From contig JBBDKG010000013.1 of NCBI GenBank assembly GCA_040879435.1, positions 18,271-82,270 on the forward strand: a DNA stretch of 64,000 nt, written 5' to 3'. How positions within the stretch are numbered: the stretch's first letter is position 1; each line of letters opens with the position of its first letter. Made by a program: the position numbers and the translations under genes. Source of the DNA: Minisyncoccota bacterium (GTDB lineage: Bacteria > Patescibacteriota > Minisyncoccia > Phycocordibacterales > UBA918). The notes under the pieces are model-generated. The model did no database searches. It was not told where the DNA came from and worked only from the letters and a program-made list of their open reading frames with translations. This document shows positions 916-7,561 of this stretch, in pieces.

Positions 916-1569
916 CTAGAGGAAGTATATCTGTGTGAGAAGTTTCTTGAATGCAGCACGGATCTCGCTCTCCTCGTCCTCATACTGACCGATGATCACG
1001 TAGTGCTTTCCACGATATTCGAGTACATAGGTCTCGCTTGTGAACGGGCCATTTGCGGTAAAGCGGATCGCTGCGACATTATCGACGCGGGCGTCTTCCG
1101 GCTCACCGATGCGGAGGCCGTATGCTGTGTATCCGCTGCGGGCTTCCGCCCATTCGCGCAGCGTGGGCTTTGGTGCTTCTTCGGTGGTCGTGCCGGTCGC
1201 CGGTTCGGTTGTTGTTGCCGCTTCCGGTTCGTCAAACACAAGAATGGTGATGGCCGGCATCTGACTACCGACCGCCGCCACGCCTTCTGCTGCGTCGTAG
1301 CGTACGCTATCGACGAGCGTGTATGCCTTCACCAGAGCAGGGTCGCCAAGCGCTGCGCCCTCCGGTGACTCAAGGAGCGTATACCCCTCCATGCCGGCGT
1401 AGTATGTGAACTCAAGATTCTGCGCCTCGCCGGTCACCTGTTGCGGCACCCCGGGGATCTCATATCGCTGTGGATCGTCGGTCCGATCCCACGCGTACCA
1501 GACCACTCCTGCTGCTACGATGAGGAGCACGATGATGCTTATAACAATTCGGTTCGTATTCTGTGTCAT
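916..1569 (-). CDS. hypothetical membrane-anchored protein (N-terminal TM, extracytoplasmic domain, Thr/Glu-rich linker)
   Basis: ATG start at 1567-1569; there is one N-terminal TM helix (IVISIIVLLIVAAGVVWYAW); I recognise no known domain. Confidence 0.45.
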   Translation of the reverse strand: MTQNTNRIVISIIVLLIVAAGVVWYAWDRTDDPQRYEIPGVPQQVTGEAQNLEFTYYAGMEGYTLLESPEGAALGDPALVKAYTLVDSVRYDAAEGVAAVGSQMPAITILVFDEPEAATTTEPATGTTTEEAPKPTLREWAEARSGYTAYGLRIGEPEDARVDNVAAIRFTANGPFTSETYVLEYRGKHYVIIGQYEDEESEIRAAFKKLLTQIYFL

Positions 1570-1722
1570 ATGTTACTTTCAGACTATATAAATGGTCGTT
1601 CCTGACGCTGCAACAACTATAGTGTGCACGCGATGAAGAGCTCATGAACGGATGGAACTCTGCAGGGCACTGTGCAGAGTTCCATTGTACGGCATATTGT
1701 GGGGAATGCCGAACATGTATGG

Positions 1723-2799
1723 TCATTCTCCGATATTGAGCCCACTATTGGTCGTTGCGTCAAGGTCGATGTGCGTTGCAGGCGGATTCGCAAGGTCAAC
1801 ATCAATGATCAAACCGGTCTCCTGGTCGATCGTGATGGTTCCAAGAAGGCTGAGTGCCGCTTCAACCTCACCCGCCAGCTCCTCTGCAGCCACGATACTC
1901 GCCTCTGCAGCTGCTTCTGCATTGCGAGCAAGTTCAGCGCGTGCATCGGTAATGTGCTCAGCTGCAGTGTCGAGTGTTGTTCGCATATCGTTTCTCGTCT
2001 CTGCTTCAAGTTCAGCTTCAGCGTTGATCACTCCGCGAAGTGAGGCGACACGGGCTATAACAGCCTCAAATCGTGCATCGAGATCGATCTCGCCGGCGAG
2101 CTGTGTGCTCATGAGCGCCATCGAGGACTCTTCGGCCGCATCGTTCGATGCTGACGCAAGCCGCGTGGTGACGTCTGCAGCGAGTGTATTGCCGTTTGAC
2201 GCAAACGCTGCCAGGTCGGCTGCAACCGACGCAAGGACAGTCGTTTCGATCTCAGCTGCCACATCAGCGTCAGCGCGCAAGGATGCCTCCTGCGCGACTT
2301 CCGCCTGCGCAAGGATACGTGCATGAGCCTCTGTTGCCGCTTCACCTTCAAATTCGCCGCGGGACGCAAGTTCATTCGCTTCCTCGACCCGTTCTGCCAA
2401 TAGTCCAGCCTGGAGGCGTGCTTCGGCATTGGCGCCGATCGCTGCCGCACTCCGTACATTCTCATTCACATGGATCTTCACCGGATAGAGCATGTCCCCC
2501 GGTACCGCACCCGCAGCAAGCGCAGCTGTTCCGCCGCCTGCAACCATAAGTGCGATCAGTAATGATGCGTGTATATACATAGTCTTTGTTCGGATACGTA
2601 GAAGTAATGTCGACCATACAGGCTGTTGCTGTATGTGCTCCGTAGAACGCACTACCTCCCCCTCTCTTACACCTTCAGTCACTTTATGAAAATCCGCATA
2701 CGAAGAAAGCGACTCGCGCATGCGTAGCTTGGCCTCACGCGGAAGTTCTATCTCCGCAACCTGCTTCAGATATTCGGTTGTATCGCGTTTATTCGTCAT
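1723..2799 (-). CDS. anti-sigma-factor-like membrane protein (DUF5667-like), co-operonic with the ECF sigma factor
   Basis: Its start overlaps the sigma-factor stop as ATGA (2796-2799); the product has a single TM followed by PGDMLYPVK and a long Ala/Glu-rich coiled region, which is the typical partner architecture of an ECF sigma. Confidence 0.55.
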   Translation of the reverse strand: MTNKRDTTEYLKQVAEIELPREAKLRMRESLSSYADFHKVTEGVREGEVVRSTEHIQQQPVWSTLLLRIRTKTMYIHASLLIALMVAGGGTAALAAGAVPGDMLYPVKIHVNENVRSAAAIGANAEARLQAGLLAERVEEANELASRGEFEGEAATEAHARILAQAEVAQEASLRADADVAAEIETTVLASVAADLAAFASNGNTLAADVTTRLASASNDAAEESSMALMSTQLAGEIDLDARFEAVIARVASLRGVINAEAELEAETRNDMRTTLDTAAEHITDARAELARNAEAAAEASIVAAEELAGEVEAALSLLGTITIDQETGLIIDVDLANPPATHIDLDATTNSGLNIGE

Positions 2800-3296
2800 A
2801 CGTGTAGTTGTTGTTGCAACCGCTTCACCGCTCGGTTGATACGTACCGATACAGTATTCGCTGACTCACCGATGATCTCGGCAATATCACGGGGTTCAAG
2901 GCCGTCAACGAATCGCATCACCAACACCTCGGCGTCCCCTTCACTGAGCTCTTGCATGTTCCGGACGATCTCTGCATAGGCTGCCTCTGCCTCCGACGAG
3001 AGCGACTGCCGGTCGGCGACCTGGAATCCGCCCTCCATCTTTGTGTCGAGGGAGTCACTCTTCTTCTTGCGATACCAGTCGATCACAAGGTTGTTCGCGA
3101 TAGTATAGAGGTACGACCGAGAATTGGTCATCTCCTTGCCGTTTCGAAGTGCCTGCCAGAATCGCATGAACGTGTCTTGTGTGAGATCCTCCGCCAGTTC
3201 AGCGCTGCTGGTCTTCACGACGCAAAATCGAAAGATCGCATCGCTGTATTCGTCGAATGCGTCGAGAAATGACTGTTTGAGAGAATCCTGATCCAT
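2796..3296 (-). CDS. RNA polymerase sigma-70 family ECF sigma factor
   Basis: Region 2 reads DLTQDTFMRFW..YLYTIANNLVIDWYRKK and region 4 reads VLVMRFVDGLEPRDIAEIIGESANTVSVRINRAVKRL; the likely true start is ATG at 3294-3296 (MDQDSLKQ), because the ORF track extends it upstream with an alternative start. Confidence 0.85.
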   Translation of the reverse strand: MDQDSLKQSFLDAFDEYSDAIFRFCVVKTSSAELAEDLTQDTFMRFWQALRNGKEMTNSRSYLYTIANNLVIDWYRKKKSDSLDTKMEGGFQVADRQSLSSEAEAAYAEIVRNMQELSEGDAEVLVMRFVDGLEPRDIAEIIGESANTVSVRINRAVKRLQQQLHV

Positions 3297-3427
3297 AAAA
3301 CGTTTCAGCCGGTGGTTTGTGACACACCACAAGCGTATCATAATGAGCAGCGGTGGTGTATCCATCCACACCCCCAGAGCCTCACCCGCTTGCGATACCA
3401 CTTCGATTGCTATACCCTCACGTGGAC

Positions 3428-3826
3428 ATGCCAGCAACAAAACCATTCAGTGTCCGCCGTACATCCGCCGGCCTCGGACTCGTCGCGAACAACGAATACA
3501 AAAAGGGTGACTTCATCATAGAATACACCGGCGAGATCATCACTGACGCAGAGGCCGACGAGCGTGCGAACCGGTATCTCTTTGAGATCAATGGCAGATG
3601 GACGATCGACGGCTCCGGTCGAACGAACCTCGCCAGATACATCAACCACTCGTGCCGTCCGAACGCCGAAGCGGAGGTGGACGAGCGTGCCAAGAAGGTA
3701 CGCATCTATGCGAAGAAACGTATCGAGGCAGGTGACGAACTCACCTACGACTACGGGAAGGTTCATTTCGACGAATATATACGACCGAATGGGTGCAAGT
3801 GTGAAAAGTGCATGGAGAAACAATGA
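3428..3826 (+). CDS. SET-domain protein lysine methyltransferase
   Basis: The SET signature NHSCRPN and the ELTYDY motif are present, followed by a Cys-rich post-SET motif (CKCEKC); the start is taken as ATG 3428 (MPATKPF). Confidence 0.8.
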   Translation: MPATKPFSVRRTSAGLGLVANNEYKKGDFIIEYTGEIITDAEADERANRYLFEINGRWTIDGSGRTNLARYINHSCRPNAEAEVDERAKKVRIYAKKRIEAGDELTYDYGKVHFDEYIRPNGCKCEKCMEKQ

Positions 3827-3943
3827 CGGCAAAACACCATTGTTTAAGGCACATTATATGATATAGTGCACACATACGAGCGGAATAAGGGACGCCCCGC
3901 AATCACGCCTCCTTTCGAACCGTTACCCGTTAAGCCCATACAT

Positions 3944-4618
3944 TTGAGAAAACCACATTCATCATTCAACGCAAAGTCACGAACGCGCATCAACAACGCA
4001 ATCCGCGCGCGTGAGCTTCGTGTGGTCGGCGCCAACGGCGAGAATCTTGGCGTACTGCTCCTCAACGACGCTCTGAAAGCAGCCGAAGAGGCTGGATGCG
4101 ACCTCATTGAGATCTCCCCGAACGCCAAACCACCGGTAGCCAAGATCATGGACTTCGGTCAGTACCGCTATCAGGAGAAGCGGAAAGCAAGCGAGGTGAA
4201 GGCAAAGTCGCACGTGACGGAAACAAAGAGCGTGCAAGTGAAGATCGGTACTGGCGAACATGACCAAATGCTCAAGGCCCGCCGTGCTGCCGAATGGCTT
4301 TCCGAAGGTCACCGCGTGAAAGTGGACCTCTTTCTCTGGGGCCGGTACAAGTATATGGAGCCAGCCTTCTTGAAGGAGCGACTGGAGCGCTTCCTGAAGC
4401 TTATCCCGATCGAATACAAGCTGGCGGATGAGATCAAGAAGAGCCCGAAGGGATACACAACGACGCTCGAGCGGGAGGGCAAGGCAAAATTCCAGCCAGC
4501 CAAAGAGAGTGCGAAACCTGCCCAAATCCTTGAAAAGGAGCCGAGAGAGTCGGAACAACCACCGGCAAAGTCGAAAAAGAAGTCCCTCGATGAGCTCATT
4601 GAAGGCGGTCTGCTATAG
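3944..4618 (+). CDS. infC: translation initiation factor IF-3 (non-ATG start; exact start uncertain, 3866-3950)
   Basis: The ORF contains INNAIRARELRVVGANGENLGVL..LIEISPNAKPPVAKIMDFGQYRYQ and a C-terminal domain (HVTETKSVQVKIGTGEHD), and carries a Lys-rich C-terminal tail; infC classically uses an unusual start codon and there is a TTG at 3944. Confidence 0.8.
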   Translation: MRKPHSSFNAKSRTRINNAIRARELRVVGANGENLGVLLLNDALKAAEEAGCDLIEISPNAKPPVAKIMDFGQYRYQEKRKASEVKAKSHVTETKSVQVKIGTGEHDQMLKARRAAEWLSEGHRVKVDLFLWGRYKYMEPAFLKERLERFLKLIPIEYKLADEIKKSPKGYTTTLEREGKAKFQPAKESAKPAQILEKEPRESEQPPAKSKKKSLDELIEGGLL

Positions 4619-4681
4619 CTGGACTTTAGAGGGTAACTACGGTATAGTGCACCGACTTTTGCGTTCCCGAACACGAAATGT

Positions 4682-4873
4682 ATGAAAACGAATAAATCAT
4701 TTACAAAAAGAATCAAGGTGACCAAGAACGGCAAGCTCGTTGCACGAAAGCCTGGCCAGAACCACTTCAACGCACGTCAGACCGGTCAGCAGCGCCTGAA
4801 CCGCCGCCGCACTCAGGTTCTCACGATGTCGAAGCGGATCACGCGACGATTTCTTCCTAAATCTGGTGCCTAG
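4682..4873 (+). CDS. rpmI: 50S ribosomal protein L35
   Basis: The 63 aa basic product reads MKTNKSFTKRIKVTKNGKLVARKPGQNHFNARQ and lies between infC and rplT. Confidence 0.9.
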   Translation: MKTNKSFTKRIKVTKNGKLVARKPGQNHFNARQTGQQRLNRRRTQVLTMSKRITRRFLPKSGA

Positions 4874-4908
4874 CAGCACTACCTCACTAACCGACTATCT
4901 ACTAATAT

Positions 4909-5253
4909 ATGGCACGAGTTAAAGGTGGCGTCACCGCGAACAAACGACGCAAAAAGATCCTCGAACAGGTAAAAGGGTACCGGTTCGGCCGATCGACCAA
5001 GAAACGTTCAGCACGCGACGCGATTTACCATGCACAGCTGCACGCCTTCGATCATCGAAAGGACAAGAAGGGCGATTTCCGCAGCCTCTGGATCACCCGC
5101 ATCAATGCGGTTCTGAAGAACCAGGGCATGCAATACAGCCGGTTCATCAAGCTTCTGAAGGACAAAGGCATTGCACTTGACCGGAAGGTGCTCGCCACGA
5201 TGGCGAAGGACCGCCCTGAGGCCTTCCAACGAGTTGTTGAGAAGGTGAAGTAA
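4909..5253 (+). CDS. rplT: 50S ribosomal protein L20
   Basis: The product reads MARVKGGVTANKRRKKILEQVKGYRFGRSTKKRSA. Confidence 0.95.
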   Translation: MARVKGGVTANKRRKKILEQVKGYRFGRSTKKRSARDAIYHAQLHAFDHRKDKKGDFRSLWITRINAVLKNQGMQYSRFIKLLKDKGIALDRKVLATMAKDRPEAFQRVVEKVK

Positions 5254-5286
5254 CAAAAACCCCGCACGATGTGCGGGGTTTTTGTT
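5254..5286. terminator. bidirectional intrinsic terminator after rplT
   Basis: The sequence aaaaaccccgcacgatgtgcggggtttttg forms a GC hairpin flanked by A and T runs. Confidence 0.8.
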
Positions 5287-5530
5287 ACATCTGATCTTGA
5301 GGGTCTTGTGTCTGAGAAGGCAGCTTATTTTTCGCGGTAATACTTGTAATGAACTTACGTGTTCCTACGACGAATAAAAGAAGAGAAAGTCCTCCGAGAA
5401 CCCAATTCCATGGAGGTAATGCTCCCGATACTTGCGCGACTACCTGTAGCACAGCAGCACCTAACATGTATAAGAATGGCACTTTGAGATCTTGAAATGT
5501 GATTTTCATAATCCCTATAGTAGCTTCCAT
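5285..5530 (-). CDS. small two-TM membrane protein in an AT-rich islet
   Basis: The product MEATIGIMKITFQDLKVPFLYMLGAAVLQVV...WNWVLGGLSLLLFVVG sits in a local GC drop (about 42% against about 55%) and is bracketed by two terminators. Confidence 0.35.
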   Translation of the reverse strand: MEATIGIMKITFQDLKVPFLYMLGAAVLQVVAQVSGALPPWNWVLGGLSLLLFVVGTRKFITSITAKNKLPSQTQDPQDQM

Positions 5531-5681: not shown

Positions 5682-6161
5682 TTAGTCGCGCACAAGCCGA
5701 AGTGCGGTAGAAGCATATCGATGAACTTCCGGCCGCATACGCGAGTCGTCCTTTAGGAGGTCGTCAAGTTCCGTCTGCGTGAGCCAGCGACATTCTGCTC
5801 CTTTGTCCGCTTCTGTTTGCGGGTTAATCTCCCGCGAATCTGCTTTTGCAGCAAAAATGATTGATGAATGCTCATGTGTGTCCGTAACAAAATGCCGGTT
5901 CACGAACAGTGGCGGTATGAGGTCTCTGTTTGTCTCCGTATCTTTCTGCTCCCAATCAGCCGGGCCGACTAAGGATACCTTGAGTCCGACCTCCTCCCAT
6001 ACCTCACGAAGAGCTGCTTCGTTCACATCCTCACCTGGATCAATATGACCGCCAGGAGCATTCCAGATATCGTACTTCTCATGGAGTCGCAATAATACCG
6101 CATCACCGTTAACGACATATGTATCGACGCATAGATCAAGATAATAGTTTGAGTGTGCCAT
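5682..6161 (-). CDS. NUDIX hydrolase
   Basis: A NUDIX box is present: GGHIDPGEDVNEAALREVWEEVGL. Confidence 0.85.
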   Translation of the reverse strand: MAHSNYYLDLCVDTYVVNGDAVLLRLHEKYDIWNAPGGHIDPGEDVNEAALREVWEEVGLKVSLVGPADWEQKDTETNRDLIPPLFVNRHFVTDTHEHSSIIFAAKADSREINPQTEADKGAECRWLTQTELDDLLKDDSRMRPEVHRYASTALRLVRD

Positions 6162-6202: not shown

Positions 6203-7561
6203 TTAAAACTCAATCTCAACCTGCTCACCAAGCGCCGGTGCAACAGCTGTAACCCCTAAATAATCACGCAGTCGCTGCACCAAAAAGAGTGACGCTTTCT
6301 CCTCGCCCATCGTCACGAACACCCGCTCCGCCTGCTCTCCACCTTTCGCCACGAAATCAACAAGCTGATCACGGTCAGCGTGCCCCGAGAACCCCCGGAT
6401 CTGTACGACCTGCGCCCGCACGCGGATATCCCGCCCGTCGATGGTCACCTTCTTGGCGCCGTCTACCAAACGTCGCCCCAACGACCCCACCGACTGATAC
6501 CCCACCTGCAGCAGTATGTTCGATGGATCTTCCAGGTAGTGTTGCTCATGCCTGCGGATGCGCCCCCCGTGACTCATCCCCGAGCCGGCAATGATGATCT
6601 TCGCCCCTTTCACTTCTCGTATCTTGTTCGATTCACTCGCAGAACGGGTGAATTTCAATTTCGGGAATTCAAAGATATCATCTCCCCCTTTAATCTGCTC
6701 ACGCACATCCTCTCGCAGATGATCTGCATACTGTTTGTATATACCAGTGACCTCGATGGCGAGCGGCGAGTCGAGGAACGTCGGGATCGGCTCGATTTCG
6801 CCGGACTCCATAAGGTTATTGATCTCAAGTAGCATTCCCTGTGTGCGTTCAAGCGAGAACGCCGGAATGATGAGCGTCCCGTTCTTGCGGACCGCTTCTT
6901 TGATATAGTGCGCGAGCAGGTGACTCCGCTCATCGACCTCTTCGTGCACGCGGTCACCATAGACACTTTCCATAACCAGATAGTGGTAGCCGGAAGGTGC
7001 TTCAGGCGGTGGCATCAAGGGCTGTGGGATGTTCCCGATATCGCCAGAAAAGACAATACTTCGGCCATCTCGTGTGAGCGTCACGATTGCAGAACCAAGG
7101 ATGTGACCGGCGTTTGAGAATGTGGCGGTGACGTTGTCCGGAAGCATGGTAGCTTCTCCATACTCCGCTGTTTTCCACATAGCAAGTGCCGCATCGATAT
7201 CCGCTTCCTCGTAGAGTGGTTTCGTCCCGTACCGTTCCGCCTCCATGCGCATGATGCCGTACGCGTCGCGAAGCATAACCGCAGCGAGCGCCTTGGTCGG
7301 GGCGGTCGAGTATATCGTTCCGGCGAATCCGTCGTGGACCAGCTTCGGGATGCGACCAATATGATCGGCGTGTGCGTGCGTCACTACGAGCGTCGCGACC
7401 TCTGCCGGATCGTACGGAAACGGTTCTGCGTTCGCCGCCTCGGCAAAACGGTCCCCCTGAATGAGGCCACAATCAACGAGCAGGTGTGCTGTGCCTGTGT
7501 CGAGATGGAAGTTGGCACCGGTCACTGCACCGGCGCCACCGTAGAAGCTAAGTGTTGTCAT
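6203..7561 (-). CDS. MBL-fold beta-CASP family RNA-processing nuclease (RNase J/CPSF-like)
   Basis: The VVTHAHADHIG (HxHxDH) motif is followed by a beta-CASP-like region and a C-terminal RNA-specificity-like domain; the start is taken as ATG 7561 (MTTLSFYGG). Confidence 0.7.
   Translation of the reverse strand: MTTLSFYGGAGAVTGANFHLDTGTAHLLVDCGLIQGDRFAEAANAEPFPYDPAEVATLVVTHAHADHIGRIPKLVHDGFAGTIYSTAPTKALAAVMLRDAYGIMRMEAERYGTKPLYEEADIDAALAMWKTAEYGEATMLPDNVTATFSNAGHILGSAIVTLTRDGRSIVFSGDIGNIPQPLMPPPEAPSGYHYLVMESVYGDRVHEEVDERSHLLAHYIKEAVRKNGTLIIPAFSLERTQGMLLEINNLMESGEIEPIPTFLDSPLAIEVTGIYKQYADHLREDVREQIKGGDDIFEFPKLKFTRSASESNKIREVKGAKIIIAGSGMSHGGRIRRHEQHYLEDPSNILLQVGYQSVGSLGRRLVDGAKKVTIDGRDIRVRAQVVQIRGFSGHADRDQLVDFVAKGGEQAERVFVTMGEEKASLFLVQRLRDYLGVTAVAPALGEQVEIEF

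Follow-up and report, generated by a model that had tools for sequence, protein, structure and literature searches.

An ECF Sigma Factor Operon and a Divergent SET-Domain Gene in a Paceibacterota Genome Are Probably Independent Neighbors

ECF Sigma Factor and DUF5667 Genes

The DNA analyzed here is a 64-kb stretch (the window) from an uncultured Paceibacterota bacterium (Candidatus Paceibacterota, Patescibacteria). Its minus strand carries an ECF sigma factor gene (positions 2796 to 3296, 166 aa) and, overlapping it, the gene for a DUF5667 membrane protein (1723 to 2799, 358 aa), and its plus strand carries a SET-domain gene (3428 to 3826, 132 aa), which is separated from the sigma gene by a gap of 131 bp (3297 to 3427). 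All three gene identities proposed in the initial annotation match Pfam profiles, and the divergent layout is as described there; the sigma ORF also stands, with its start at 3296, one base from the implied 3297.

The sigma protein consists of regions 2 and 4 only, with Pfam matches to Sigma70_r2 (~3060 to 3257, minus strand; E = 1.1e-13) and Sigma70_r4_2 (~2817 to 2969, minus strand; E = 1.2e-11), and it scores 94.1 bits against TIGR02937, the cut-off of which is 42.9. As judged from these profiles, the product is an ECF (group IV) sigma factor of the sigma-70 family. None of the named ECF groups (SigW, SigM, SigX, BldN, and others) can be assigned, with all specific NCBIfam models scoring far below their cut-offs (59 bits for SigW, cut-off 243; 90 bits for BldN, cut-off 206). 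The nearest solved structure is that of Bacillus subtilis SigW (PDB 5wuq, 2.8e-13).

Bases 2796 to 2799 read TCAT on the plus strand and thus ATGA on the minus strand, so that the stop codon of the sigma gene and the start codon of the DUF5667 gene overlap by 4 nt. This overlap, pointed out in the initial annotation, is consistent with translational coupling and may couple the translation of the two genes. It is also 4 nt long in the related loci L082, L083, L087, and L089, and 8 nt long in L092. Among the metagenomic loci with enough downstream DNA, 46 of 66 have a DUF5667 homologue directly downstream of the sigma gene.

The DUF5667 domain itself (PF18915; 2254 to 2511, minus strand) scored 34.1 bits (cut-off 27). 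The N-terminal ~40 aa of the protein are conserved, a hydrophobic helix was recognized from the alignment and by reading the sequence at about residues 77 to 99 (2503 to 2571, minus strand), preceded by the basic residues RIRTK, and the C-terminus is long, Ala/Glu-rich, and helical. No recognizable anti-sigma domain (zinc-binding, RskA, FecR, or similar) was found: Pfam returned only DUF5667 and NCBIfam nothing, the alignment shows no HxxxCxxC in the N-terminus, and a profile search of the PDB retrieved nothing beyond coiled-coil-like noise. AlphaFold produced a poor, all-helical model (pLDDT 58.5). By position and topology, the protein is presumed to be a single-pass anti-sigma-like or sensor partner, and the two genes would then make up a standard autoregulated module of an ECF sigma factor and a DUF5667 membrane protein.

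A Stand-Alone SET-Domain Protein

The product of the plus-strand gene aligns with the whole SET profile (PF00856, positions 1 to 105 of 105; 3470 to 3757), with a score of 90.6 bits (cut-off 22.4) and an E value of 1e-25. It contains the motifs NHSCRPN (3644 to 3664) and ELTYDY (3737 to 3754) and a C-terminal, post-SET-like CxCxxC cluster, here CKCEKC (3794 to 3811), all on the plus strand; residues N73, H74, C76, Y107, Y109, C123, C125, and C128 are invariant over 56 homologues. A phmmer search of the PDB retrieved the KMT2D and KMT2C SET domains (4e-17). The AlphaFold model (pLDDT 89.8, pTM 0.80) matched 375 SET-domain chains of the PDB at E ≤ 0.001 in Foldseek, the best match being the MLL1 SET domain (E = 3e-10, TM 0.74, 32% identity). 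Pfam, phmmer, and AlphaFold with Foldseek thus agree that the motifs singled out in the initial annotation align to the SET fold, and the protein is predicted to be a stand-alone SET-domain protein-lysine methyltransferase. An identical protein at NCBI is already named “SET domain-containing protein”. In a separate exact-sequence look-up the protein had no match, and the Logan call on the identical contig (L081) is an antisense ORF.

Bacterial SET proteins had been taken to be uncommon, a view that does not hold. At E ≤ 1e-10, the family of small stand-alone SET proteins comprises at least 3,310 protein clusters, many of them from Paceibacterota, and a search of species-representative genomes gave matches at 208 places. 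According to a 2014 review, SET genes are present in over 500 bacterial genomes, and the small SET family occurs in free-living and environmental prokaryotes (PMC3980110). The sigma factor and SET genes of the window are further members of already known kinds.

A Conserved ECF-Type Motif Upstream of the Sigma Gene

A two-block motif (GTAAGA-like, N15-16, CGTC or CGTT) lies at a fixed distance from the sigma ATG in 57 of 58 homologous loci, and it tracks the sigma gene over these 57 loci at protein identities of 39 to 79%. In the window it takes the form of P1 (3299 to 3323, minus strand), with a -35-like GTCACA (3318 to 3323) and a -10-like CGTT (3299 to 3302) abutting the sigma start. A position weight matrix (PWM) for the motif was built without the window and used to scan the 64 kb in both orientations; P1 scored 16.2 bits, the second best value, and the best match of the whole window was a second copy within the DUF5667 gene (P2, see below). 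The consensus pattern has 2 matches in the window compared with 0.02 expected, and the strict pattern is confined to the P1 and P2 positions of sigma loci, with none in 80 SET loci. PWM scores of 16 to 20 bits also arise in some shuffled 64-kb sequences, and the case for a promoter therefore rests on positional conservation rather than on the score alone.

We suggest that the sigma factor would drive its own operon from P1. With the predicted promoter abutting the start codon, this implies a leaderless mRNA. P1 lies only 2 nt from the ATG in the window's clade, as opposed to 6 to 7 nt in other clades, so that a standard start site would fall inside the ORF and the promoter model is incomplete. 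An alternative upstream start of the sigma gene, which could have explained this geometry, was considered and rejected: several orthologs have in-frame stops and lack a start codon upstream, and the colinear N-termini of the orthologs also count against it.

The same geometry, which in this clade does not fit a canonical start site that takes in the AUG, could mean that the GTAAGA...CGTT elements, instead of being promoters, are bound by a different regulator or are coding or RNA features. P2 fits such a reading in that it lies in coding sequence, where the encoded VR...RS is conserved in the protein too. We nevertheless regard it as unlikely. Two blocks with an AAC/AAG-type -35, a spacing of 15 to 16 nt, and a CGT -10 are the hallmark of ECF promoters, SigW target promoters being TGAAAC-N16-CGTA; the motif accompanies the sigma gene over loci of widely differing identity, as given above; and P2 is maintained by rare codons.

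Just upstream of P1 is an extended -10-like element, TGATACGCT (3332 to 3340, minus strand), which is conserved as TG(A/G)TA(C/G)GCT among the window, L087, L089, and L083. The element may act as a housekeeping promoter that provides basal expression, and the sigma operon probably has such an extended -10 promoter in addition to P1. A simple scan calls a TATGAT overlapping TGATACGCT, but such sites are no commoner than in shuffles; likewise, a generic sigma-70 and terminator scan of 1500 to 4100 gave no more matches than shuffles and no terminator.

A Second Copy of the Motif Inside the DUF5667 Gene

P2 (2643 to 2670, minus strand) consists of GTAAGA (2665 to 2670), N15, and CGTTCTA (2643 to 2649), and it scored 19.8 bits. 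It is kept at the same position in all close orthologs and in L100, and L097 fits the strict pattern there. In 6 of the 7 near-clade loci that were scanned whole, the two highest-scoring matches are those at P1 and P2; the exception is L083, in which the P2 site scores only 9.8 bits. The codons within the motif are rare ones (AGA, 4% of Arg; TCT, 10% of Ser; GTA, 16% of Val), whereas the spacer, unlike the motif, varies freely. That rare codons keep P2 in all close orthologs suggests an internal, sigma-dependent promoter.

Downstream of P2 lies an in-frame Met codon, that of Met74 (2578 to 2580, minus strand), which opens the transmembrane helix. It is tempting to assume that the ECF module of this clade has been rewired, P1 having moved 5 nt nearer the ATG and P2, closer to consensus and inside the anti-sigma-like gene, yielding a sensor-only DUF5667 isoform. 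Transcription from P2 by the active sigma factor would then yield an N-terminally truncated protein that starts at the conserved Met74 and keeps the transmembrane helix and ectodomain without the presumed sigma-binding cytoplasmic segment; it could act as a built-in decoy for, or feedback element on, the signal or protease by which the full-length protein is inactivated. We consider this scheme speculative and unlikely. If true, such a sensor-only isoform, made from a sigma-dependent promoter within the gene, would add a previously undescribed layer to ECF control, and the system would be the first in the candidate phyla radiation to be described at the promoter level. P2 is in any event a conserved promoter-like element inside an anti-sigma-like gene and is open to test.

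A Separate Promoter-Like Element for the SET Gene

The initial annotation proposed that the sigma factor and SET genes share an intergenic promoter region and that SET is regulated by, or together with, the sigma factor. The SET gene has a conserved extended -10-like element of its own, P_SET (TGCTATACCCT; 3408 to 3418, plus strand), with the orthologous form TGnTACCCT and a block TGnTAyCCT that is kept in the window, L087, L089, and L083. It lies 8 to 9 nt before the SET ATG, which implies a leaderless or nearly leaderless mRNA, and SET would accordingly be transcribed as such from a housekeeping-type -10. The same geometry, TAnnnT followed by ATG 6 to 7 nt later, was seen at many other genes of the window, and there is sequence-based evidence that leaderless transcripts may be common in this genome. 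The center of the gap shows no conservation, and the lineages differ in gap length. Instead of a shared region, the gap thus holds separate predicted promoters.

The search of the gap and of the 64 kb for an ECF-type motif found the copy before the sigma gene (P1), the copy inside the DUF5667 gene (P2), and no conserved copy facing SET. On the SET strand the motif is absent in every ortholog, where the best matches reach at most 7.3 bits at non-homologous positions. The window itself has one ECF-like match facing SET (3279 to 3304, plus strand; 10.5 bits), which arises through the palindromic AACGTT of P1; it was dismissed as unconserved noise, since shuffles give 13 to 20 PWM matches above 10 bits each.

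That SET is a member of the neighboring ECF sigma factor's regulon, or is controlled coordinately with it, so that envelope stress would change protein methylation, is in our view highly improbable. The genes are divergent, the gap is short in L087, L089, and L083 as it is in the window, and this short-gap adjacency has been kept in four lineages, so some interplay in cis between such close promoters may occur. The sigma motif, however, faces the sigma operon only, the plus-strand match is within noise and the orthologs' weaker matches lie elsewhere, SET keeps its own conserved housekeeping-type -10, and the adjacency is broken in L082 and absent from all more distant sigma and SET loci, as detailed below.

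Synteny of the SET and Sigma Factor Genes

SET and the sigma gene are adjacent in four lineages only (the window, L087, L089, and L083), in which the block rplT-rpmI-infC-SET/sigma-DUF5667-hyp916 is syntenic and the housekeeping neighbors are equally conserved. In L082, an SNase nuclease gene is inserted between SET and the sigma gene. No SET gene was found beside the more distant sigma/DUF5667 pairs P0009, L090, L092, and L094, nor in any of 80 further metagenomic loci with sigma homologues, of which 48 include over 700 nt of upstream sequence. Conversely, 80 loci with SET homologues were searched by tblastn and phmmer with the sigma, DUF5667, IF3, and hyp916 proteins; a sigma or DUF5667 gene was present within 6 kb of SET in 0 of 80, and the searches returned nothing save one distant infC. 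Clustering of the neighbors of SET genes revealed none common across phyla, only lineage-level synteny, and the context of SET genes is variable among other Paceibacterota. The co-occurrence of SET with the sigma/DUF5667 pair, raised in the initial annotation, is for the most part not borne out: the adjacency is seen among the closest relatives, is interrupted in L082, and is absent from the distant pairs and from both sets of 80 loci. Going by these gene orders, the adjacency reaches no further than general synteny.

The same data bear on a tie between SET and the translation genes downstream of it, for instance through methylation of a ribosomal protein or translation factor. SET is co-directional with, and directly upstream of, infC-rpmI-rplT in the window, L083, L087, and L089, and bacteria widely methylate lysine residues of their ribosomal proteins and translation factors. 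Yet infC occurs within 6 kb in only 1 of the 80 other SET loci (L007), where it is ~6 kb away, a DUF1295 gene lies between SET and infC in L082, and the SET context varies in other Paceibacterota. We therefore hold such a tie to be very unlikely.

Two Independent Transcription Units

We conclude, with a probability of roughly 75%, that the locus consists of two independent transcription units that are neighbors in one lineage, and that the adjacency of SET and the sigma gene is local synteny. Separate promoters and a narrow-lineage adjacency make the pairing look like ordinary synteny and not like a regulatory link, and with a predicted promoter for each unit the 131-bp gap is best seen as back-to-back promoters and not as a shared control region.

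If a stress sigma factor did control a rare bacterial SET methyltransferase, the locus would have given a handle on bacterial SET function; with that framing unsupported, it gives none. Its modest remaining use lies in the ECF motif consensus, the evidence for leaderless transcripts, and the internal promoter-like element. The consensus, GTAAGA-N15/16-CGTC/T, defines a predicted promoter for a widespread Patescibacteria ECF sigma/DUF5667 module. To our knowledge, gene regulation in Patescibacteria is essentially unstudied. We found no relevant literature on DUF5667, on SET proteins of Patescibacteria, or on ECF systems of Parcubacteria/Patescibacteria, and the 2021 re-classification of ECF sigma factors mentions none of these, Patescibacteria included, in its main text (PMC7826278).

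Comparison with Known Systems

Among SET proteins, the catalytic domains of the MLL/KMT2 family are the best matches of the window's protein in sequence (KMT2D, 4e-17) and in fold (MLL1). Unlike these, it is a single-domain bacterial protein without pre-SET/SET-N or WRAD-interaction regions, and its post-SET-like cluster has the spacing CxCxxC in place of the eukaryotic CxCxxxxC. The resemblance is one of fold and chemistry, with no evidence of histone targeting.

In size and composition (~130 aa, SET domain only) the protein is like Methanosarcina mazei Go1-SET and the chlamydial SET proteins, and it shares the conserved catalytic motifs NHxC and ELxYDY with the small prokaryotic SET proteins (PMC3980110). 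It differs from them in that no gene for a chromatin protein and no secretion signal was identified beside it and in that its gene context varies among Paceibacterota.

For the sigma module, the closest comparison is B. subtilis SigW-RsiW. The window's sigma factor differs in scoring below every specific NCBIfam equivalog cut-off and in belonging to a host lineage within Patescibacteria; its partner, in place of a zinc-binding or RskA-type domain, has DUF5667 and a long Ala/Glu-rich helical ectodomain; and the predicted promoter abuts the start codon, with a second motif inside the partner gene. As in SigW-RsiW, the sigma factor has regions 2 and 4 only, with SigW as its best solved relative, the sigma gene overlaps with that of a presumed single-pass membrane protein downstream of it, and a two-block AAC/AAG...CGT promoter-like motif lies upstream of the sigma factor's own gene.

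Gene content of the locus

The sigma gene (positions 2796 to 3296, minus strand) encodes a 166-amino-acid protein whose only sigma-70 regions are 2 and 4. Against the ECF superfamily model TIGR02937 it reaches 94 bits (curated cutoff, 42.9), and it attains no specific equivalog among the family models; the nearest solved structure is Bacillus subtilis SigW (5wuq; 2.8e-13). The sigma stop codon overlaps, as ATGA (TCAT at plus-strand 2796 to 2799), the start of the DUF5667 gene (1723 to 2799, minus strand), the 358-amino-acid product of which matches PF18915 (DUF5667) with 34.1 bits (cutoff, 27). The SET gene (3428 to 3826, plus strand; 132 amino acids; PF00856, 1e-25) lies on the opposite strand, 131 bp from the sigma gene. 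This is the arrangement described in the initial annotation. Both the DUF5667 and the SET protein have identical entries at NCBI from a “Candidatus Paceibacterota” MAG, the latter named ‘SET domain-containing protein.’

A long ORF antisense to SET (3410 to 3766, minus strand) was chosen over it in the public gene calls of two contigs (L081, the identical contig, 1871 to 2227; L089, 3379 to 3912), probably an artifact of the long open antisense frame. Because public calls took this ORF instead, an exact-sequence lookup of the SET protein gave no match. Past the DUF5667 stop codon, a perfect 11-bp inverted repeat (GGAACTCTGCA, 6-nt loop, TGCAGAGTTCC) is present at 1651 to 1690; having no T-run after it, it was not called in the terminator scan. 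The gene that follows on the same strand, hyp916 (916 to 1569, minus strand), encodes a 217-amino-acid protein that has a hydrophobic N-terminal helix and matches nothing in Pfam or NCBIfam; it is syntenic in L083 and L087 to L089 (53 to 64% identity).

A sigma/DUF5667 module with its own probable promoter signature

Scanning the sigma protein against metagenome contigs yielded 80 loci (39 to 66% identity). Among the 66 that extend far enough downstream, 46 have a detectable DUF5667 homologue directly after sigma. An alignment of the 70-nt stretches preceding the sigma start codon in 58 loci revealed, in 57 of them, a two-block motif whose distance to the ATG is fixed. The −35-like block is GTAAGA, with the variants CTAAGA, GACAGA, and GTAACA (GTCACA in the window, 3318 to 3323, minus strand), and is separated by a spacer of 15 to 16 nt from a −10-like CGTC or CGTT (window 3299 to 3302, minus strand). 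The sigma/DUF5667 pair is a widespread Patescibacteria module with a probable promoter signature of its own.

When both strands of the 64 kb were scored with a PWM built without the window, this site, P1, ranked second (16.2 bits), and the consensus pattern matched twice against 0.02 expected matches. Since scores like that of P1 are sometimes reached in shuffled sequences, the case rests on positional conservation. Across 172 loci the strict ECF pattern occurs only at the position of P1 and at that of a second site, P2. That these conserved motifs are something other than promoters is unlikely.

No Shine-Dalgarno sequence precedes the sigma ATG in the upstream alignment, and as the motif abuts the ATG, the predicted sigma mRNA would carry little or no leader. 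In most sigma loci (other clades, L098 to L168), the spacing is CGTC-N6/7-ATG, so that a standard start site would coincide with the first base of the start codon. In the window’s clade (L082 to L096), however, the motif lies 5 nt nearer (CGTT-N2-ATG), which would put the canonical start site inside the ORF. This spacing is anomalous, since the sigma N termini are colinear across clades despite the shift and the window’s clade offers no alternative start codon farther upstream. An extended −10-like element, TG(A/G)TA(C/G)GCT (window 3332 to 3340, minus strand), is common to the four closest lineages a little upstream of P1 and may be a source of basal transcription.

A further ECF-type motif within the DUF5667 coding region

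P2 (GTAAGA-N15-CGTTCTA, 2643 to 2670, minus strand) lies within the DUF5667 coding sequence and has the top PWM score of the whole window (19.8 bits). The site, at nucleotides 105 to 130 of the gene, is kept in each close ortholog examined (L082, L083, L087, L089, L090, and L092 to L095) and in L100, with a score of only 9.8 bits in L083; the strict pattern is also matched at this position in L097. Of the seven near-clade loci scanned in full, six have P1 and P2 as their two best hits. Most distant sigma loci lack P2, and the clade that carries it is the one with the shortened distance from P1 to the ATG.

The P2 blocks rely on codons that this genome seldom uses (GTA, 16% of Val; AGA, 4% of Arg; TCT, 10% of Ser), while the 12-nt spacer between them and the five residues encoded there vary freely, which suggests that the DNA sequence itself is constrained. 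About 65 nt downstream of P2, a conserved in-frame Met74 (2578 to 2580) opens the transmembrane helix; hypothetically, a P2 transcript could therefore encode a shortened DUF5667 protein without the conserved cytoplasmic N terminus.

L094 contains a third strong copy (6729 to 6753, 20.5 bits), which precedes by about 40 nt the gene after DUF5667. That gene encodes a 228-amino-acid protein with a signal-peptide-like N terminus and, to judge by this motif, may belong to the ECF regulon in that lineage. No equivalent was found upstream of hyp916 in the window.

The SET protein and its predicted promoter

The SET motifs named in the initial annotation are present, and N73, H74, C76, Y107, Y109, C123, C125, and C128 are invariant among 56 homologues. 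The fold is borne out by phmmer (KMT2D SET in the PDB, 4e-17), AlphaFold (pLDDT, 89.8), and Foldseek (MLL1 SET; E value, 3e-10; TM, 0.74). To call bacterial SET proteins uncommon was an overstatement: a family search returned at least 3,310 clusters at an E value of ≤1e-10, often annotated as Paceibacterota, Parcubacteria, or Nomurabacteria, and a 2014 review that argued for a bacterial origin counted SET genes in >500 bacterial genomes (PMC3980110). The remark that their targets are mostly unknown is still fair.

The divergent layout had been read as suggesting regulation by, or coordinate with, the ECF sigma. In the gap between SET and sigma, P1 points toward the sigma side. On the SET strand, a conserved ECF motif is missing from every ortholog, and the best scores there (≤7.3 bits) fall at nonhomologous positions. 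A plus-strand hit facing SET (3279 to 3304, 10.5 bits), which makes use of the AACGTT palindrome of P1, was rejected because it does not rise above noise and is not retained in orthologs. The gap differs in length among lineages, and its central part shows no conservation. SET orthologs instead share their own element, P_SET (TGnTAyCCT, window 3408 to 3418, plus strand), 8 to 9 nt before the ATG. Its geometry is that of many other window genes, which lack a Shine-Dalgarno sequence and have TAnnnT, often preceded by TGn, 6 to 7 nt from the ATG (starts at 6161, 7946, 12238, 33114, 41839, 46930, 54165, and 63294, among others); clear GGAGG sites occur at a minority (e.g., 28094 and 59927). Such starts suggest that this Paceibacterota genome makes frequent use of leaderless mRNAs, and SET, given its conserved P_SET, looks like a leaderless gene with a housekeeping promoter. 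Membership of SET in the ECF regulon, for which its divergent position would speak, is very improbable.

Neighborhood of SET and sigma in other genomes

Among loci found from the DUF5667 protein, SET is divergent and adjacent to sigma in L087 (54% identity), L089 (47%), and L083 to L086 (47%), in all of which the whole block rplT-rpmI-infC-SET/sigma-DUF5667-hyp916 is syntenic. In L082 (45%; 3285 to 5433), SET is separated from sigma by an SNase gene and from infC by a DUF1295 gene; a run of N interrupts the 5′ end of SET there. More distant sigma/DUF5667 pairs have no SET (P0009, 41%; L090, 36%; L092, 35%), nor has L094, with a 66% identical sigma, nor any of the 80 metagenomic sigma loci, 48 of which include >700 nt upstream. 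Conversely, in the best 80 SET loci from species-representative genomes (39 to 63% identity; Paceibacterota, Bradyrhizobium/Xanthobacteraceae, Acidobacteriota, and others), neither tblastn nor phmmer detected a homologue of sigma or DUF5667 within 6 kb of SET. The expected co-occurrence thus fails beyond the closest relatives, and adjacency is limited to the range where all surroundings are also conserved. That same block, interrupted in L082, places infC-rpmI-rplT downstream of SET; a tie of SET to these translation genes is distinctly unlikely. In eight other Patescibacteria loci (L007, L021, L023, L031, L032, L033, L037, and L039), a homologous multipass membrane protein of ~690 amino acids adjoins SET just upstream, a context different from that of the window.

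Promoter, neighborhood from DUF5667, and neighborhood from SET all connect SET to sigma weakly or not at all. We consider the sigma module and SET to be regulatory strangers, with a probability of about three in four.

Two units and known systems

In the most likely mechanism, the first unit is an ECF module. The DUF5667 membrane protein, whose N terminus lies inside and whose DUF5667 domain and helical ectodomain lie outside, presumably retains sigma until it is freed by a signal; sigma would then transcribe its own operon from P1 and, in this clade, also from P2. The second unit is probably a constitutively transcribed SET methyltransferase.

Literature searches turned up nothing on DUF5667 or on ECF sigma factors in Patescibacteria. 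Judged from sequence, the window sigma would work like SigW/RsiW-type modules; it falls outside every named equivalog, and its DUF5667 partner has no recognizable anti-sigma domain. The SET protein is typical of the small SET proteins of prokaryotes. Both sigma and SET are genes of kinds already known, and the unusual aspect of the locus is confined to its predicted promoter architecture, a leaderless P1 and an internal P2.
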